Source: an uncultured Fidelibacterota bacterium (lineage in GTDB: Bacteria > Fidelibacterota > Marinisomatia > Marinisomatales > UBA1611). Taken from it: a stretch of DNA of 36,370 bases. The notes beneath the pieces were generated by a model. That model saw only the letters and a program-made list of their open reading frames with translations, ran no database searches and was not told the DNA's origin. Position 1 is the first letter of the stretch. Each line of letters opens with the position of its first letter. Below, piece by piece: positions 10,480 to 18,757 of this stretch. The position numbers and the translations under genes were made by a program. The stretch is from the NCBI GenBank assembly GCA_913040915.1, contig CAJWHW010000022.1, positions 1 to 36,370 of the forward strand. The letters are read 5' to 3'.

Positions 10480-13080
10480 TTACTTCAAGAGAACCATTTT
10501 CTGAGTCTTCCGGCTGGAGCCAGAAACAAGTTCAGAAAAATAAATTCCACTGGCAAAGCCTTTAGCATCCCATTGGACTTCATAAGTTCCAGTTTGAAGT
10601 TGTCCATCAATGAGCGTTGCTATACTCCGTCCTGTAATATCATAAATCCGTAGAATCGTATTATTCGCAGTATTTTGTCCAACATCAAACCTGATGGTAG
10701 TAACAGGGTTAAATGGATTAGGATAATTAGCATAAAGATTGAATTCCTTAGGCAAGGTACCATTTTCTGAATCTATTGCCGTATATGAACCAGGTGTAAG
10801 TGTTCTTCCAAAACTTATGCGTAATGATTCAATATCTTCTAATTCATTTAAACCAGCTATTTCATCACTAGCATCTTCTATACATTCTTCAATCGAACCT
10901 TCATCTTCACAAGGATCAAAGGAAGCTTCCATTGCAAGTGTATCTGTTCCATCATTCATGAAATAATAGGCCAATTCAGTCGTATCCGCTTCTTCTTCAT
11001 AGTAATAATCATCATATTCGTGATATAGAAAAAGAGAATCTGATGTAGCATACCACGTAAAGTAGGATGTGTCTGCGTAGGTGCTGTAATAATAATAATC
11101 ATCTTCTTCAACATAAATTTCCATCCCTGTTGAATCATCATAAAATGACATAAAAGCATCCGGAGCATCATCTTCGCCAAACATGTCTTCTAAAAATGGG
11201 TAAGCTGTTTCTTCATTAGCGAGAAAATCAATCCATCCAGGACCAATTGTTCCAGATAATGAGAGAACTACAGCAGATCCATTTTCTTCATATAAATTTA
11301 AGTTGTTAAATGTAAGAGTGTATTGAGTAGTATCTACATTCGTGAGAGTCCCAATTTCAGCTGAATCTGCTACTATTTCCAACATTTCGCCATCAGCAAA
11401 GTATAGCCCTTGAACTTCATCTATAACGATATCACCACTTTCAGTTTGATTTGTAAATACAGCGACTATTACAGGATTTTCTAAACCTAGACTATCGGGA
11501 TCAAGACCAAACATGAGCATAAAAAATTCCATAAAAGAAATGTTCATAATAAAAAGTTCATCTCTTTCATCTTCTTCATCTTCATCATCGTTATAAAGTA
11601 TATAAATAAAGTTCTCAAGTTCATCAAGATCCAGAACACCATCATCATTTTCATCGGACTCATTGAAAGCATACTCTAAGTAATCTTCTTCTTCTTCTGA
11701 CAAGGGTGGATCACCAGATTCAGAGTTGATGTCATTAATACCATTAATAATTTCTTCAAGAGTAAGTACACTGTCACCATTAGCATCGCACCAATCTAAG
11801 AAATCTTCTGGAGTTGGTACTTCGTCATCGTCATCTCCGCCACCATTCCATTCATTTTCCATTTCCATTACAAAACTGGCATAAGTTTGATCTAAATCAC
11901 TGTTATCAAGAAAACATCCAATACTTCCGCCTTCTATTAACACGTATTCAGAAACAAATGAATAAACAGCCATTTTAAATGGATCTTCAGGCCAATTTAT
12001 TTCGCACATCGCTGGGTCATTCCCTCCAAGTCCGCCGGAGACATATTCACCATCTACCACAAGATCAAATTCGGATTCAAGGTCAAAAGCATCTTCACCC
12101 CAATCACTTGAGTTATCATTAACATAATCCTGGGCAAAAGTTAAAGCATCATAATTTCGAGATGTGTCTTCTCTCGGATCATCATCATCTCCATCTCCCC
12201 AATAAAAGTTGTAAGCCTCCATCCAAAAATTTTCATATGATAATTCATAAACAGAACCATCATAAGCAACAGTCATGGCAATATCATCCCCTTCACAGGA
12301 GATAGCATAGATTTCGCCACTATCGTAAACTTCATCATCATTTTCATCAATGAACTGAAAATAATATTCTGAGAATTCATAATTATTTGCCCAATTTTCA
12401 AATTCTGCCGAACTAGCGATATCAAAAGATGTAACTGCATCCATCCCATCAAAATTTCCCATACAGCCATCGCAATCAGCACCTACAGTTTCTAATATGC
12501 TACCATAATTTCCATAAAGGTCGGCAACTGATTCATATTCAAATTCAACTCCATTGGCACCAACACCTTCTTCACAGATTTCATCGATAGGGTAATCTTC
12601 ATGACAGCAATCACAATATTCATCTGAGACATCAATACCATCATCCATATAATCATTATACTCACCCATACAATTCATATCACAATCCGAATCTCCACCA
12701 CCATCTTCATCCATATATGATGTATCTAGGAGATAAGTTAGTTCTGTTTGAAAATCATCGTCAGTTGCAGTAACGCCACCTTCAGCTTCAAGAATTGCCA
12801 TCATAGTATACGGGTTTACAATAGTCTGATCACTTGCAACAGTCACGAATAATTCCATCCATTCTTCTTCCAATTTCCATTCGCCAACCAAATCTTCCAT
12901 ATCTCTGGAAGCTATACGATGGGATGGTTCGGAAAACTTTTTCAGTTTATATAAATCATCCAAAGAATACACTTGATAATTCTTTTGGAGAGTATTTTTT
13001 AAATTTTTGAGATTAGCTGGCAAATTATCAATGCCATAACAAATTGAAAGGGTAAGAAGTCCAATAACAGTTTTCTTCAT
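10480..13080 (-). CDS. Large acidic secreted protein with EF-hand pair and T9SS-type-A-like C-terminal sorting domain
   Basis: Signal peptide; D/E-rich; EF loops DANGDSVLTLEE and DENDDGVLDLDE; C-terminal NYPNPFNP...KMVLLK; AAGGAG RBS. Confidence 0.85.
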   Translation of the reverse strand: MKKTVIGLLTLSICYGIDNLPANLKNLKNTLQKNYQVYSLDDLYKLKKFSEPSHRIASRDMEDLVGEWKLEEEWMELFVTVASDQTIVNPYTMMAILEAEGGVTATDDDFQTELTYLLDTSYMDEDGGGDSDCDMNCMGEYNDYMDDGIDVSDEYCDCCHEDYPIDEICEEGVGANGVEFEYESVADLYGNYGSILETVGADCDGCMGNFDGMDAVTSFDIASSAEFENWANNYEFSEYYFQFIDENDDEVYDSGEIYAISCEGDDIAMTVAYDGSVYELSYENFWMEAYNFYWGDGDDDDPREDTSRNYDALTFAQDYVNDNSSDWGEDAFDLESEFDLVVDGEYVSGGLGGNDPAMCEINWPEDPFKMAVYSFVSEYVLIEGGSIGCFLDNSDLDQTYASFVMEMENEWNGGGDDDDEVPTPEDFLDWCDANGDSVLTLEEIINGINDINSESGDPPLSEEEEDYLEYAFNESDENDDGVLDLDELENFIYILYNDDEDEEDERDELFIMNISFMEFFMLMFGLDPDSLGLENPVIVAVFTNQTESGDIVIDEVQGLYFADGEMLEIVADSAEIGTLTNVDTTQYTLTFNNLNLYEENGSAVVLSLSGTIGPGWIDFLANEETAYPFLEDMFGEDDAPDAFMSFYDDSTGMEIYVEEDDYYYYSTYADTSYFTWYATSDSLFLYHEYDDYYYEEEADTTELAYYFMNDGTDTLAMEASFDPCEDEGSIEECIEDASDEIAGLNELEDIESLRISFGRTLTPGSYTAIDSENGTLPKEFNLYANYPNPFNPVTTIRFDVGQNTANNTILRIYDITGRSIATLIDGQLQTGTYEVQWDAKGFASGIYFSELVSGSSRKTQKMVLLK

Positions 13081-13173
13081 ATTCTATCTCCTTGTATTTT
13101 GGAACGTGAAGTTAAAAATAAAAAGCCGCTTAGTTAGGAATTAAATAATAATTATAAAAAGAAGTGACTTAAA

Positions 13174-13896
13174 TCACTTTTTTAAATAATTGTTTTCTAT
13201 CAAAATTTTGGAAAAACCAAATGTTTGGAAAAAAATAGATGAACAAAATACCACTACGATTAATTTTTGAGTAATAACTTGGAAAACTAAGGCCACTTGG
13301 CTTGATCTCGGCGGTGGCCCAAATTCTAATACTGCAACATAGAGCCCTATCATAATAAAAAAAGCACCGTATCCCAAAGCGTATTTTTTTTCTATTACAT
13401 CAGTTCTGTAAATCACTATAGTATAGCATAATGCAGTAACTAAAAAACAATAAAATATATTATTAGAAAAAAAAATGTGTGGATCTAATACCAGATCGGC
13501 CGGAGTAAGGCCTGTTCCAATGAGACCGATACTACCTCCCATGGAAAAAATTGTCCCAACCACCGCCAATCTGTAGTTAAGAGCATTACTTTTGAAAAAC
13601 TGAGGAAGTGCAAAATAATAGACTGTAAATGTCAATCCGCAAAGTGTTAGTGAAATGATGAAAATTCCCATCGATAAAAAATTTGGTTCACCATTATAGG
13701 CTGTATAGGTACCTAGATCTGAAAAGAAATTTTCTGTAAAAGAATACCCGATAGTATTAGTATTATGAATGGTACCACCCGGATAAAACACCATCCCCAA
13801 AATTTGAAGAATAATAAATGCAGCAACTACTATTCTTGGAGTTATTACCAATAATCCTCGGTTGGCTAAACATTTTATTTTTGGATGTTTAAACAT
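13174..13896 (-). CDS. Multi-pass membrane protein (DUF998-like)
   Basis: About 6 TM segments; YPGG, YSFTENFFSDLG and a conserved His motif. Confidence 0.75.
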   Translation of the reverse strand: MFKHPKIKCLANRGLLVITPRIVVAAFIILQILGMVFYPGGTIHNTNTIGYSFTENFFSDLGTYTAYNGEPNFLSMGIFIISLTLCGLTFTVYYFALPQFFKSNALNYRLAVVGTIFSMGGSIGLIGTGLTPADLVLDPHIFFSNNIFYCFLVTALCYTIVIYRTDVIEKKYALGYGAFFIMIGLYVAVLEFGPPPRSSQVALVFQVITQKLIVVVFCSSIFFQTFGFSKILIENNYLKK

Positions 13897-13981
13897 AGAT
13901 GAAATTTGAAATTAAATAAAAAAATATTACAGAAATTTACAAGGGTTATCCCAATCATGAATACTTTATAGATATTGGTAA

Positions 13982-13997
13982 TGTGATGGTGATCACG
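13982..13997. promoter_or_regulatory. CRP/FNR-family binding site (copy 1)
   Basis: TGTGA-TGGTGA-TCACG, 9/10 match to TGTGA-N6-TCACA; conserved in copy 2. Confidence 0.6.
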
Positions 13998-14047
13998 TGA
14001 AAAAAAATGGGATAAGAAGAAATACAATTTATAACGTATATTAATCA

Positions 14048-14132
14048 AGATGTACCTGGTTGGGTACGTTTGGTATGTAGAGAAAGGGGCATAATTCATT
14101 AGAGGCTTAATGCAAATAATGAGTTGTGCCCC
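14048..14132 (+). ncRNA. Candidate structured small RNA, copy 1
   Basis: Hairpin 14048-57/14062-71, linker GGTATGTAGAGAAA, 16-bp hairpin 14086-14101/14117-14132; all non-WC pairs are G-U on +; homologous to 16256-16340. Confidence 0.55.
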
Positions 14133-14179
14133 GATTACATTTTAGTAATTGACCGGATTCTATACAGTAATTATATAAA

Positions 14180-16045
14180 TTATAAATTTTCCGAAATCAC
14201 TTTATTTAGCCGTTTTACAAATCCTGATGGATCATTGAGTTTAACTCCTTCTTGAATAAGGGCCTGCTCGTAAAGAAGGAAAGCAATATCATCAAAAGCT
14301 TTTTTCCTGGTTATTGATTTCAATTTTTGTACTATCTCATGTTTGGGGTTGATCTCTAGTATGGGTTTTATTTCAGGGAAATCTGTCTGTCCCATTGACC
14401 GTAATATTTCCTGCATTTGTGCTGTTGGATCATTTTCATCTGCTACAATACAAGAAGGAGAATCACTTAATCTGTTGGACACCTTAACTTCTTTTACTCT
14501 TTCACCCAGAACTTTTTTCATTTTTTTCAAAACAGGTTTTGTAGATTTTTCAGAATCTTTATCTGATTCTTCTGAAAAATCGTCAGCTGCTCCGGAGCGA
14601 TTAACTGATTTCAATTCCTTATCATCATATTTTGGTACCGATGTAATGATTATCTCATCAATCTCATCGTCCAAAATGAGGACTTCCAAATTTTTCTTGG
14701 CATACATTTCCAATAATGGTGAACTACGTAATGAAGATTCATTTTGTCCTGTGATATAATAGATCGATTTCTGCTCGCTATCCATTCGATCTACATATTC
14801 TTTAAGAGAAACGAGACCTTCTTCTTTTGTTGACTTAAATCGCAGTAATTCTATCAAAGCATCCTTATGCTCAAAATCTTGATATACACCTTCTTTGATT
14901 AATCGTCCAAACTGGTCATAAAATTGTTCATATTTGTCTTTCTTTTTAGCAATAACATTCAATTTGTCTAAAATCTTTTTTACAGAATTAGATCGGATTT
15001 TTGCCATTATACGATTTTGCTGCAGAATTTCTCGGCTCACATTAAGAGGTAAATCCGATGAATCAATGATACCCTTGACAAATCGTAACCAAAGAGGAAG
15101 TAATTCCTTATCATCGTCGGTAATAAAAACGCGGTTTACATATAGTTTTACACCTGTCTGGTAATCTGTCCTATACAAATCTGGAGAAGCGGTTTTTGGA
15201 ATATAGAATAAAATGTTGAATTCTAAATTTCCTTCTGCCTTATAATGAATCCAATCCAGTGGTTCATCCTGATCATTAGAAAAGGATTTATAAAATTCGA
15301 TATATTCTTTCTTTTTTAATTCAGATTTTGAACGTGTCCAAAATGCTTTGGCATCATTGATTTGTTCGGTTTTGGACGTACGAGATTTTTCTTCACCATC
15401 CTTATCATAATCAATCTCATCGTAAGTGAGTAAGATTGGAAAATCAATGTGATCAGAGTATTTTTTAATTAAACTATCTAATCGCCAGCGACTTGCAAAT
15501 TCTTTCCCCTCTTCATTTAAATGGAGCTTTATCGTTGTTCCGTGGCTTTTCCGAACTTCTTTTTTAATCTGAAATCCTGATTGACCATCACTAGTCCAAA
15601 GATACGCTTCTTCTTCCCCAGCTTTTTTAGTAGAAACATCCACTTTATCCGCTACCATAAAACAGGAATAAAAGCCTACACCAAATTGTCCTATTAATTG
15701 TGAATCTTTTTTATCATCGCCGGAAAGATTATTTAGGAAGTTTTTTGTGCCGGAACGGGCTATAGTTCCAATATTTTCAATCAAATCTTGTTTATTCATT
15801 CCTATGCCTGTATCCGAAATGGTTAATATTGGATTATCACCTTCAATAAATTCAATTTTAATTCCCGGATCAAAGGGAATTACCTTATAGGTTTCATCTG
15901 TGAGATTCAGGTAACGTAATTTGTCTAAGGCGTCAGAAGCATTTGAAATCAATTCTCTTAAGAAAATTTCTTTATTAGCATATAGTGAATGGGTAATGAG
16001 GTGGAGAAGTTGTCCAACCTCTGTCTTGAAAGTTTGTTGAGGCAT
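14180..16045 (-). CDS. htpG: Molecular chaperone HtpG (Hsp90)
   Basis: SLYANKEIFLRELISNASDALDK, DTGIGM, IGQFGVGFYS and DLPLNVSREILQ motifs. Confidence 0.98.
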   Translation of the reverse strand: MPQQTFKTEVGQLLHLITHSLYANKEIFLRELISNASDALDKLRYLNLTDETYKVIPFDPGIKIEFIEGDNPILTISDTGIGMNKQDLIENIGTIARSGTKNFLNNLSGDDKKDSQLIGQFGVGFYSCFMVADKVDVSTKKAGEEEAYLWTSDGQSGFQIKKEVRKSHGTTIKLHLNEEGKEFASRWRLDSLIKKYSDHIDFPILLTYDEIDYDKDGEEKSRTSKTEQINDAKAFWTRSKSELKKKEYIEFYKSFSNDQDEPLDWIHYKAEGNLEFNILFYIPKTASPDLYRTDYQTGVKLYVNRVFITDDDKELLPLWLRFVKGIIDSSDLPLNVSREILQQNRIMAKIRSNSVKKILDKLNVIAKKKDKYEQFYDQFGRLIKEGVYQDFEHKDALIELLRFKSTKEEGLVSLKEYVDRMDSEQKSIYYITGQNESSLRSSPLLEMYAKKNLEVLILDDEIDEIIITSVPKYDDKELKSVNRSGAADDFSEESDKDSEKSTKPVLKKMKKVLGERVKEVKVSNRLSDSPSCIVADENDPTAQMQEILRSMGQTDFPEIKPILEINPKHEIVQKLKSITRKKAFDDIAFLLYEQALIQEGVKLNDPSGFVKRLNKVISENL

Positions 16046-16188
16046 TGATTTTCCTAAGTGTTTACAATTTTAATAAAAAGGGAATACGAACGGCGGGGAA
16101 GTTAAAAATTGTTTATAGAAAAAAACCACCTTGATCATGGAAAAATATATTTTTTTTTATTCCATAAAATTATTGTTGAAAAGAAAAA

Positions 16189-16204
16189 TGTGATGGAGAT
16201 CACT
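16189..16204. promoter_or_regulatory. CRP/FNR-family binding site (copy 2)
   Basis: TGTGA-TGGAGA-TCACT, 9/10 match to TGTGA-N6-TCACA. Confidence 0.6.
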
Positions 16205-16255
16205 GATCTTAAAATGGCCATAGGGAAAGATTAATTTTGATGCGTATATAACTTA

Positions 16256-16340
16256 AGACGCACCTGTTTGGGTGTTGTTTGGTATGTAAAGAAAGGGGCA
16301 TAATTCATTATTTATAACTTACCTCCGTGAGTTATGCCCC
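16256..16340 (+). ncRNA. Candidate structured small RNA, copy 2 (may extend to ~16408)
   Basis: Hairpin 16256-65/16270-80, linker GGTATGTAAAGAAA, hairpin 16295-16308/16327-16340; compensatory changes relative to copy 1; additional G-U-rich hairpin 16363-16408. Confidence 0.55.
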
Positions 16341-16408
16341 GCCCTTTGCTAGGCTAGGATGGAACAAGCCTTTTGTTTTCCCTTATACAGAGAAGACGGA
16401 AGGCTGTT

Positions 16409-18757
16409 TTATTTTAACAGAATTATTTTTTTCGTATCTGAAAAATTTCCAGTCCGAATCCTATAAAAATACATTCCGGCTGATACTGACTCGCCATGTT
16501 GATTTGTACCATCCCATTGAGTAGTAAAGTATCCCGCTTCCTTTTGCGAAAATTCCAAGATTTTCACTTTTTGGCCTAATAGATCATAGACTAAAATTTT
16601 TACATATGCGGCCTCAGGTATGCCATATTCAATTGTTGTAACCGGATTAAAAGGATTTGGATACGCATCTTTTAATTGATAATTGTCGGGAATTAATAGT
16701 TTATCTTTTGTATATAATTCTATTATATCAATTTCAAAATTTTCTATCCAATAATTTTTTTGGTTTGATCCAATGACTGCTTGGAATGGAATAAGTGTTT
16801 GACCATTACAATCATCACCTAAGACTGCAACAAAAATTCCTTGAATTGATACCACCGAATCTCCTGCTCCAATATCCCCTAAATAAACAAAGTTCTGTGA
16901 GTAATTTTCTATACAAGAACTACTGTCAGTAAAAAACAATAAAAAAACATCAGAAACGTCGATAGAATCACTTTGATTTTTGACAGAATACTCTGAAGCC
17001 AAGGTACTACCTGGCTCTCCTGATAATATTTCATTGAATGATATTGTTAATGGGCCAACTGATGTAAAATTTCCTACATCTTCATAAATGATTGTATCGC
17101 CTTCATCATTATTTAATAGTAATATGTCAACGGAAAAAAATGATTCATCCTCCGGGGTAAAATAAGTACGCCAATCCTCTTCCCTTTCAGTTAATTCTTG
17201 TTCATAGGTTACATTACTTAATTCATCATATATCATAGCTTTTATTACAATATCTTCGCTATTTCCAACCATTACCGCTGATATGCTAACGCTATCTGAA
17301 TGAACAGGTACATAGGATGATTCAATATTCAAATTTGTTAACCCAATCCCTGTTATATTAAATAATATAAACGACATTGGCCCTGAAACTCCTCGATCGT
17401 CCACTGCGGAAACACCAATAACATCTGTCCCAACATAATCTGAAGGTGCAGTATAACTGAATTTTCTTCTTCTACCACCATAGACTTCCACAGTTCCTCC
17501 ACTAATAGGATCTGATTCAAGATTAAACCAAAATGCATCTCCATCGTCTTCTATCTCAAATTCACCTGTGATTGTATGTCCTAATTCGACATCGTACTCA
17601 TGAGAAACTACCATAGGTATTTGGTTAGGTTGTGTATCGCAAATGAATGACTTTTGCCCAGATAAGGTACCATTAATAAAAATTCTTTCTTCCCATTCAC
17701 CTACATTTTCATTTAAAGGAGACCAAATATCATTAATCCACCAATATGATGTGGCATAATAAGGCGCACCTTGGTACCACCATTGTGTCTGCCCAGGAAC
17801 AAATGAAAACTGGTCAACAAATGTACCATCTTTATACCATTTCCAAGTTAAAGTATCTTCAGCGTAAAGGTTTCTAACAGCGACTAAGGACATATAACTT
17901 TCACCTGGATTAATACGAGTTAGAGACGGAATATTTTCTGAAACAATATATGAATATTCATCATCATTCTGGGCTGGGTATGCTGTATTCAAATGTCGAA
18001 ATACCCGTTGGGGATAAGCTGAAGAATCACCAATAAATGGAAGCTGCTCCACCCATCGAGTTTCTCCCATGCCACATTCGCCTTCCCAAGGATCAATTAA
18101 ATTCCAATTTTCGGTATTTACTTCAAAATGTAGATGCGGACCATCAGAAAATCCAGAACTACCAATAAAACCCAATGTGTCACCAATCTGAACAGTATCT
18201 CCTAATGACACCGCAACAGAGTTCTTTTTCATATGTAAATAATAAGTTCGAGTCCCATCTGTATGTTGTAACCCAACAGTATTACTGATAGCGTTATTAC
18301 TCCAATAAGTCCAGCGATCAAATTCGCCATCATGGGTATAGATGACAACACCACGAGCAGCGGCAAGGATTGGTGTAGTCATTTCGTCCATATAATAAAA
18401 TCCACTTACAGCAATATCAGTTCCCCAATGCCCATCATAAGTCACAAAATAACAGTTATAGTCTTCTATCCAACCATTTGAAGGATTCTGATCCACATAA
18501 TTTGTGATATAATTTTTATCACCATTCATCATACCTCCATTTCCCACTGGTTGATGGAACATAACAGTATCACGAGAAGTAAATTCAACATCAATAGAAT
18601 TCTCCATAATATGTTGTCTTTCATTTTCGGTAAGGCAATTAGGCAGGTGAGATGGTTGCAAAGGGACTTTACCGCCAACTTGGATATGATCTCTGGCAAA
18701 GGATTTTGGAATTATGAATATAGAAATTATTAGTAATTGAAAAATCTGTTTAACCAT
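16409..18757 (-). CDS. Secreted M23-family (peptidoglycan DD-metalloendopeptidase) protein with Ig-like domains and T9SS/FlgD-like C-terminal domain
   Basis: HWGTD (HxxxD), YLHM and GPHLHFEV motifs; C-terminal YPNPFNP...WDG...KIILLK. Confidence 0.9.
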   Translation of the reverse strand: MVKQIFQLLIISIFIIPKSFARDHIQVGGKVPLQPSHLPNCLTENERQHIMENSIDVEFTSRDTVMFHQPVGNGGMMNGDKNYITNYVDQNPSNGWIEDYNCYFVTYDGHWGTDIAVSGFYYMDEMTTPILAAARGVVIYTHDGEFDRWTYWSNNAISNTVGLQHTDGTRTYYLHMKKNSVAVSLGDTVQIGDTLGFIGSSGFSDGPHLHFEVNTENWNLIDPWEGECGMGETRWVEQLPFIGDSSAYPQRVFRHLNTAYPAQNDDEYSYIVSENIPSLTRINPGESYMSLVAVRNLYAEDTLTWKWYKDGTFVDQFSFVPGQTQWWYQGAPYYATSYWWINDIWSPLNENVGEWEERIFINGTLSGQKSFICDTQPNQIPMVVSHEYDVELGHTITGEFEIEDDGDAFWFNLESDPISGGTVEVYGGRRRKFSYTAPSDYVGTDVIGVSAVDDRGVSGPMSFILFNITGIGLTNLNIESSYVPVHSDSVSISAVMVGNSEDIVIKAMIYDELSNVTYEQELTEREEDWRTYFTPEDESFFSVDILLLNNDEGDTIIYEDVGNFTSVGPLTISFNEILSGEPGSTLASEYSVKNQSDSIDVSDVFLLFFTDSSSCIENYSQNFVYLGDIGAGDSVVSIQGIFVAVLGDDCNGQTLIPFQAVIGSNQKNYWIENFEIDIIELYTKDKLLIPDNYQLKDAYPNPFNPVTTIEYGIPEAAYVKILVYDLLGQKVKILEFSQKEAGYFTTQWDGTNQHGESVSAGMYFYRIRTGNFSDTKKIILLK

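Follow-up and report, generated by a model that had tools for sequence, protein, structure and literature searches.

The DNA analysed here (the window) is a stretch of 36,370 nucleotides of an uncultured Fidelibacterota (Marinimicrobia) bacterium, contig CAJWHW010000022.1 of assembly GCA_913040915.1, in which two non-coding direct repeats of about 150 bp lie on either side of htpG. An initial annotation, made by a model from the letters alone, had put these repeats forward as a pair of small RNA (sRNA) genes or as a single-stranded-DNA hairpin element. Both repeats are present, in the same orientation, where that annotation placed them (13982-14132 and 16189-16340), and their cores (14047-14101 and 16255-16310) are identical at 49 of 56 aligned columns, exactly as claimed. 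In the same global alignment the whole units agree at 113 of 156 columns and their 100-nt flanks at 55 of 110 and 50 of 109. The 28-mer GGTATGTAGAGAAAGGGGCATAATTCAT has two matches in the window when up to three mismatches are allowed (with none and one, respectively), and none in 100 dinucleotide-preserving shuffles. All neighbouring genes are on the - strand and are thus antisense to the proposed RNAs, as the annotation had stated, and no + strand gene follows either copy. The two copies share one layout, in which a palindrome-like TGTGA-N6-TCAC box, a feature not singled out before, forms the 5' end of each unit and is followed by a weak -35 element, a TATAT(T/A) -10 hexamer, a 10-bp 5' hairpin, the linker GGUAUGUAGAGAA and a GC-rich terminator-like hairpin. 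The parts are given below, the -10 hexamers being read from the sequence. R1 is a covariance model built from 18 well-aligned copies; type A designates an RNA gene divergent from a DUF998-like gene, and type B one divergent from htpG.

13982..13997, CRP-type box of copy 1 (TGTGATGGTGATCACG), one mismatch to TGTGA-N6-TCACA
14037..14042, + strand, putative -10 hexamer TATATT of copy 1, within the conserved block CGTATATT; the start of the RNA is predicted from this hexamer
14048..14146, + strand, candidate sRNA copy 1 (type A), both ends predicted; R1 match of 87.7 bits at 14046-14146
14048-14071, hairpin 1 of copy 1
14072-14085, linker of copy 1, GGUAUGUAGAGAAA
14086-14132, hairpin 2 of copy 1, followed by the tail GAUUACAUUUUAGU
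16189..16204, CRP-type box of copy 2 (TGTGATGGAGATCACT), with the same box-RNA spacing as in copy 1
16245..16250, + strand, putative -10 hexamer TATATA of copy 2, at the position of the conserved CGTATAT block
16256..16354, + strand, candidate sRNA copy 2 (type B); R1 match of 85.6 bits at 16254-16354
16256-16280, hairpin 1 of copy 2, with one bulge
16281-16294, linker of copy 2, GGUAUGUAAAGAAA
16295-16340, hairpin 2 of copy 2, with the loop motif CUUACCUCC and followed by the weak U-tract GCCCUUUGCUAGG
16355..16416 (approximate), long hairpin followed by a U-run on the + strand, with a flanking A-rich stretch, overlapping the stop of the convergent M23-peptidase gene (from the fold of 16254-16424)

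Both hairpins described in the initial annotation belong to the minimum-free-energy fold of the + strand in each copy. The + strand folds reach -42.2 kcal/mol in copy 1 and -36.4 kcal/mol in copy 2 (z -7.2 and -4.5, respectively), compared with -25.2 and -23.8 kcal/mol (z -4.5 and -2.0) for the - strand, a difference of 13-17 kcal/mol in favour of the + strand. Five stem pairs per copy are not Watson-Crick pairs, and every one of them, as read from these folds, is G-U on the + strand, in agreement with the earlier description. A 74-codon open reading frame (ORF) on the - strand covers copy 1; it has no Pfam match and no counterpart over copy 2. A simple scan for promoters and terminators, with a loop limit of 3-8 nt that makes it blind to hairpin 2, returned promoter-like sites no more often than in shuffles.

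Relatives of the repeats were sought in the genome to which the window belongs (1.86 Mb, 85% complete; labelled G000) and, at the DNA level, in 54 genomes of the same taxonomic family, 26 of which gave matches. R1 matched 30 full-length high-scoring loci in 28 genomes, which represent 8 of the 15 genera of the family, as well as one copy cut by a contig end; all these genomes are metagenome-assembled and related to each other, and the counts given here are not counts of independent events. The order of parts is kept in all homologs: the box, an A-rich stretch, a TAGGGA/TAAGGG-like block at the place of a -35 element, CGTATATT, a hairpin, the linker, a second hairpin and usually a T-run. The best-conserved stretch is the linker, GGTATGTAGAGAA, after which comes a GC-rich hairpin of 12-16 bp with a large loop. 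Of the 658 stem cells, 92.4% pair; shifting the 3' partners by 1-3 columns lowers this value to 39-50%. Compensatory changes occur in 16 of the 22 stem pairs, including 9 of the 10 pairs of hairpin 1, in an alignment of the 30 homologs that was fitted to R1 and hence leans towards structure, and none of 500 shuffles reached any of the five measures used. The stem cells comprise 518 Watson-Crick pairs, 90 G-U pairs, 6 A-C or C-A pairs and 44 others. Because a G-U pair on the + strand would be an A-C mismatch on the - strand, the ratio of 90 to 6 indicates that selection has acted on a + strand RNA. Both covariation and G-U bias, which the initial annotation had proposed to look for in homologs, are thus present.

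The same annotation had described the hairpin-2 loops of the two copies as unrelated. The loop of copy 1 has indeed diverged, to CUUAAUGCA, and has lost the motif CUUACCUC, but that of copy 2 is not idiosyncratic, as it carries the recurrent motif CUUACCUC(A/C), which is found in this form or as a near variant in 23 of the 30 homologs, copy 2 included (counted by eye from alignment rows). The GC-rich stem of the presumed terminator is present in all homologs, and at least five U within the 8 nt after hairpin 2 are found in 21 of 30 homologs on the + strand and in 12 of 30 on the - strand. Hairpins like that at 16355-16416 also follow the type-B RNA in G005 and G019 and, in weaker form, in G021. 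The hairpin of the window is likely a two-way terminator, and possibly the 3' end of a longer copy-2 transcript.

The genes around the two copies are the following.

10480-13080, - strand, gene for a protein with a type IX secretion system (T9SS) tail
13174..13896, - strand, DUF998-like membrane-protein gene, the divergent partner of type A (Pfam DUF998 at 25.5 bits, cut-off 30)
14180..16045, - strand, htpG (Hsp90; Pfam HSP90, E 1.8e-132), divergent from copy 2 and convergent with copy 1
16409-18757, - strand, M23 peptidase gene with a T9SS tail

Among the 30 loci, 20 are divergent from a DUF998-like gene as identified by tblastn (type A, in most genera and in window copy 1), and six are divergent from htpG (type B, in G000, where it is window copy 2, and in G005, G019, G021, G023 and G027); the other four have another or unresolved context, three of them belonging to one genus and one lying at a contig start. 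The upstream divergent neighbour is fixed and the convergent neighbour varies, being htpG here and a DoxX-like gene, PPK2 or an amidohydrolase gene elsewhere. The two RNA genes of the sister genome G005 are separated by 4.4 kb, and a different gene adjoins type A. The earlier statement that the copies flank htpG is correct as to position, but their pairing around this gene is incidental: copy 1 belongs to the DUF998-like intergenic region and copy 2 to the region upstream of htpG, which is a bystander. A maximum-likelihood tree of the RNAs of about 100 nt is poorly resolved. In this tree, all type-B copies fall into one clade (support 86/87) with the type-A copies from the same two genera, and window copy 2 groups with its G005 ortholog (support 99/96), which implies that the duplication is older than the split of those two genera. 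The two window copies are old paralogs, each resembling its orthologs from other genera more closely than it resembles its partner.

Two further elements were noted next to these genes. On the - strand at 16088-16113 lies AACAATTTTTAACTTCCCCGCCGTTC, a promoter-like block conserved upstream of htpG in six genomes, about 60-75 nt before the ATG and nearer to it than the box; we take it to resemble a promoter of an alternative sigma factor, of the heat-shock or extracytoplasmic function (ECF) type. At 13164-13177, in the short gap that follows the stop of the DUF998-like gene, there is another GTGA-N6-TCAC palindrome (GTGACTTAAATCAC), the 8-base core of which occurs in the genome about as often as base composition predicts, and which may be a chance occurrence.

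A box that fits TGTGA-N6-TCACA with at most one mismatch is present at all 30 loci, and in 29 of them its start precedes model position 1 by 62-66 nt; TATATT is located 7-10 nt before this position in 18 of the 30 homologs, with near variants in the rest. The distance from box to RNA is the same in both paralog types. Between the box and the divergent ATG there are 50-66 nt at most type-A loci, 85 nt in the window, 137-149 nt in type B and more than 500 nt in two genomes with an inserted small ORF. Since the first spacing is constant and the second is variable, the box travels with the RNA and not with the neighbouring gene. The inserted ORF, seen between the box and the DUF998-like gene only in L048 (G005) and L055 (G020), has about 55-60 codons, begins with MSKTN and is rich in Lys and Ala. 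If transcription starts 6-8 nt past the putative -10 hexamer, the centre of the box would be at about -59.5 to -61.5. In class-I activation, CRP binds a site whose centre is near -61.5 or is displaced upstream from there by one or more turns of the helix. In PMC8916003, class-I CRP sites are described as lying upstream of the promoter, and class I and class II activation are both defined.

The genome encodes one HTH_Crp_2 protein above cut-off, a CRP-type regulator of 238 aa (L186:1468-2184, - strand) with the domains cNMP_binding and HTH_Crp_2. Its best NCBIfam match is the cyclic AMP (cAMP)-activated CRP, at 109.5 bits, which is below the equivalog cut-off of 266. The closest relatives of solved structure are 4ev0, 3r6s and 3i54, deposited as Crp or Crp/Fnr-family proteins, and 1cgp, the catabolite gene activator protein. 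In the alignment with the Crp-family regulator of PDB 4ev0, its recognition helix GTSRETVSR (containing SRETVSR/RETVSR) is identical, and a helix with R-E-x-x-x-R, as in this regulator, presumably reads TGTGA. Six class-III cyclase domains are encoded in the same genome. Orthologs of the regulator occur in all eight genera with the boxed RNA and are missing from two genera. In genera without the boxed RNA, the DUF998-like homologs are 31-34% identical, stand in other contexts and lack the box; at this distance they do not tell whether box and RNA arrived together. Two intergenic perfect box sites elsewhere in the genome (G000:C45:1705-1720 and G000:C3:69586-69601), located 80 and 44 nt from the starts of - strand genes, are candidate regulon members.

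An additional class of loci was recognised by R1 at 30-49 bits, at one locus of 95-96 nt in nearly every genome of the family. The member in the window's genome is the following.

G000:C24:134-228 (L070:134-228), + strand, box-free paralog, R1 match, about 80 nt after tRNA-Leu(CAA)

This paralog has the consensus-like promoter CTTGACT-N17-TACTTT and no box, and follows the plan of the boxed RNAs, with the same hairpin, the linker GGUAUGUGGAA and a terminator hairpin, followed by 7-8 U. Scores at the level of the boxed class are confined to the window's own family. The box-free class itself extends across the order: a search of sampled genomes with stricter filters detected it in 24 of the 26 genomes from a second family and in several more. 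Its 19-nt core occurs in 92 stretches of a species-representative genome collection. Among the 80 of these whose record titles were listed, most are Marinimicrobia, Neomarinimicrobiota or Fidelibacterota, and the remaining titles include a number that read only 'uncultured bacterium' or 'bacterium' and one Dehalococcoidia contig. This distribution is in line with the phylum at which the initial annotation had guessed. The core-bearing Dehalococcoidia contig (L159) probably reflects a binning error. In the terminator hairpin of the box-free class covariation is seen in 5 of 12 pairs and the 5' half is almost invariant, among loci that were selected by the exact core. The box-free class is more distant and older than the boxed pair. 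The possibility that it is the bacterial small signal recognition particle (SRP) RNA (RF00169) was rejected, as the SRP RNA of this genome is encoded elsewhere (G000:C24:9441-9541, 58.2 bits).

Two parts of the RNA could contact messengers, the linker and the hairpin-2 loop. The loop motif CUUACCUC is complementary to ribosome-binding sites of the GAGGUAAG type, that is, anti-Shine-Dalgarno-like, and AGGA stands 7-10 nt before the ATG of htpG and murE of this genome. The linker has a perfect complement over 12-13 nt in murE codons 4-7 (G000:C9:17666-17677, L193:667-678), both here and in G019 and G020, and one with a single G-U in G005, with a duplex energy of about -21 kcal/mol. The start of murE overlaps the stop of the preceding penicillin-binding protein (PBP) gene (ATGA). 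The predicted duplex weakens to about -14 to -15 kcal/mol in other genomes of the genus and is lost elsewhere, strong complementarity being confined to four genomes of two genera. Conservation of the linker extends far beyond the genomes with this match and hence cannot be explained by murE; murE may be a lineage-specific target or a chance match, and is regarded as a lead and not as evidence.

Taken together, these data argue that the repeats are paralogous, previously undescribed + strand sRNA genes, as the initial annotation had proposed, in view of the covariation, the G-U bias, the promoter spacing, the U-tracts and the lack of an Rfam match. That each copy is a gene for a structured + strand RNA is very probable. 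The complete reading, in which the two are paired + strand genes for cAMP/CRP-activated, trans-acting sRNAs of about 90-100 nt, we consider probable. As to its parts, CRP-type control of the RNA genes is somewhat favoured, and for base-pairing in trans as the mode of action the chances are about even. In the proposed mechanism, each unit would comprise a CRP-type operator TGTGA-N6-TCAC centred about 60 bp upstream of the predicted start, a poor -35 element and a TATAT(T/A) -10 hexamer. The RNA would consist of a 10-bp 5' hairpin, the almost invariant single-stranded linker UUGGUAUGUAGAGAA and a GC-rich hairpin of 12-16 bp that would serve as terminator. The single CRP-family regulator, loaded with its cyclic nucleotide, would bind the box and activate the weak promoter from a class-I-like position, and the box-free sibling would be made constitutively. 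Finally, the RNA would use its linker, its hairpin-2 loop or both to act in trans on mRNAs or a protein partner.

Several observations weigh against this interpretation. The placement of the box at about -60 depends on a start predicted from a -10 hexamer that was itself only read from the letters. In type A, where the box is 50-66 nt from the divergent ATG, it may regulate the divergent gene also or instead. Perfect TGTGA-N6-TCACA sites number seven in the genome, against about two estimated from base composition, and only two of the seven are intergenic, so that it is not evident that the box marks a regulon; if up to one mismatch is tolerated, the sites number 51, of which a crude ORF test places 10 between genes, only those two of the seven perfect ones among them, and the contexts of the intergenic sites in the genome have no common theme. 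Orthologs of the regulator are also present in five genera in which the boxed RNA was not found; the distribution of CRP is compatible with a dependence of the RNA on it and is not a strong test. Genes for Hfq (PF17209) and CsrA were not found in the 85%-complete genome, and any chaperone would hence be of another kind. Duplex energies of the linker and loops with 4,874 candidate start regions revealed no convincing target set: the best loop match used a non-conserved part of the loop, and most of the other top-ranking ones fell on improbable internal starts. In the 54 genomes, the sequence exactly complementary to the linker (TCTCTACATACC) has 16 non-self matches, compared with 14 for the reversed control, i.e., no enrichment. 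The U-tracts of the window copies are at the weak end of the range, with 5 of 8 U in copy 1 and 4 of 8 in copy 2. On the - strand, hairpin 2 of copy 1 lies 48 nt past the htpG stop and is followed by UUUCUCU, and from this it follows that this hairpin may double as the htpG terminator. Three marine metatranscriptomes, in which 6-9% of sampled words were covered, gave six short contigs over 13900-16400; all are htpG-coding and none lies over either copy, and these data are uninformative on the RNAs.

Some of these points would fit an explanation without any stable + strand RNA, in which hairpin 2 would be a terminator and the box an operator or promoter of the - strand genes (DUF998-like or htpG). 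Each copy occupies a gap between the stop of one - strand gene and the start of another, the complement of hairpin 2 runs into UUUCUCU, and the palindromic box is 50-66 nt away from the divergent ATG at most type-A loci. However, this explanation does not account for the 90 G-U pairs against 6 A-C pairs or for - strand folds that are 13-17 kcal/mol worse, and it leaves hairpin 1, with compensatory changes in 9 of 10 pairs, without a role. Moreover, the spacing that is fixed is that between box and RNA, whereas box and ATG are separated by anything from 50 to 149 nt, and by more than 500 nt in two genomes. In copy 2 and its G005 and G019 orthologs a further long hairpin is positioned such that it would terminate the convergent gene, htpG has its own promoter-like block nearer to its ATG, and the promoter and terminator of the box-free paralog are clearly on the + strand. 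We therefore regard this explanation as quite unlikely.

A + strand RNA might alternatively act in cis, either by antisense or interfering read-through into the convergent gene (htpG for copy 1, the M23 gene for copy 2) or by tuning the promoter of a neighbour. Such a role would agree with the weak U-tracts of the window copies and type-B orthologs, with the second terminator found 25-70 nt further on at type-B loci, and with the tight linkage of the RNA gene to its divergent neighbour. It is nonetheless unlikely, because the convergent neighbours differ among genomes (htpG, DoxX-like, PPK2, amidohydrolase), good U-tracts follow the RNA in 21 of 30 homologs, conservation of the linker and the loop motif does not depend on the neighbours, and there is no overlap between the RNA and the divergent gene. 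Direct repeats with strong hairpins could also arise from a mobile or repeated DNA element, of the repetitive extragenic palindromic (REP) or miniature inverted-repeat transposable element (MITE) kind or a single-stranded-DNA hairpin site, that landed twice near htpG. The 1.86 Mb of the genome contain two significant DNA matches and three covariance-model matches, the positions are syntenic across eight genera, the copies are old paralogs nearer to orthologs in other genera, and neither terminal inverted repeats nor target-site duplications nor a transposase among the annotated neighbours were found. Such an origin is extremely improbable, and the single-stranded-DNA hairpin element considered in the initial annotation is not supported, in view of the conserved synteny and of only two close copies and one distant paralog.

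The three classes might form one Marinimicrobia-specific riboregulatory system, in which a constitutive master RNA encoded next to tRNA-Leu and its CRP-induced siblings are exchanged on a common platform. The siblings would keep hairpin 1 and the GGUAUGU module and differ in the loop, and the module would dock on one partner, which could be a protein (though not Hfq or CsrA) or a shared RNA site. Upon a rise in cAMP, the induced siblings would displace or complement the constitutive RNA, unlike in independent seed pairing. This proposal is doubtful and is offered as speculation. Marinimicrobia (SAR406) are abundant, uncultured inhabitants of the dark ocean and of oxygen-minimum zones and can be studied from sequence only. 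An RNA family with three classes that can be modelled, together with a candidate cyclic-nucleotide regulator, provides a handle on post-transcriptional and cAMP-type control in these bacteria, and the covariance model is directly applicable to stranded metatranscriptomes.

The initial annotation recognised no Rfam family in the repeats, and this agrees with the search of Rfam 15 at the family gathering scores, in which the only match in the whole window is a tRNA fragment at 1-58, namely the 3' portion of a tRNA gene truncated by the window start. A permissive scan of 13850-16450 with E up to 10, the CyaR and Spot 42 models included, gave no match over either copy, and at the loci of the box-free paralogs only tRNAs reach the threshold. 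The sole Rfam model with a weak signal is BTnc201 (RF04177) of Bacteroides thetaiotaomicron, which matches only the box-free paralog (22.4 bits, E 0.063; gathering score 105). Like the RNAs described here, it has a 5' hairpin, a U/G-rich single strand and a terminator hairpin. However, its 5' hairpin aligns in another register and it does not match the two window copies, so that the likeness is treated as one of architecture and not of homology. A search of the open-access literature found no relevant publications on sRNAs of Marinimicrobia/SAR406.

The closest systems by design are CyaR (Escherichia coli, Salmonella) and Spot 42, which are likewise short stand-alone sRNA genes with a cAMP-CRP site in the promoter and which follow the common plan of stem-loop, single-stranded region and terminator. 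According to PMC8916003, Spot 42 is repressed and CyaR activated by cAMP-CRP. CyaR binds Hfq, whereas no Hfq gene was found in the window's genome. Both RNAs also belong to another phylum, and the present family has two boxed paralogs, for which CRP control is predicted, and a box-free one. Sibling sRNAs such as OmrA/OmrB, Qrr1-4 and the paired RyhB/Prr RNAs keep a common module while their variable parts and promoters diverge. The common module of the family described here is the 5' hairpin and the linker; unlike in those sets, one sibling has a consensus promoter without operator, and the promoters of the others are weak and accompanied by a CRP-type box. In all, this is a real and uncatalogued Marinimicrobia family of probable sRNAs, with two boxed paralogs beside htpG and a box-free one on another contig, that has so far been seen only in uncultured marine Marinimicrobia and is absent from Rfam. 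Its kind, transcription factor-controlled sibling sRNAs, is known and its mechanism is not new; what is new is the family, its phylum and its three-class layout.

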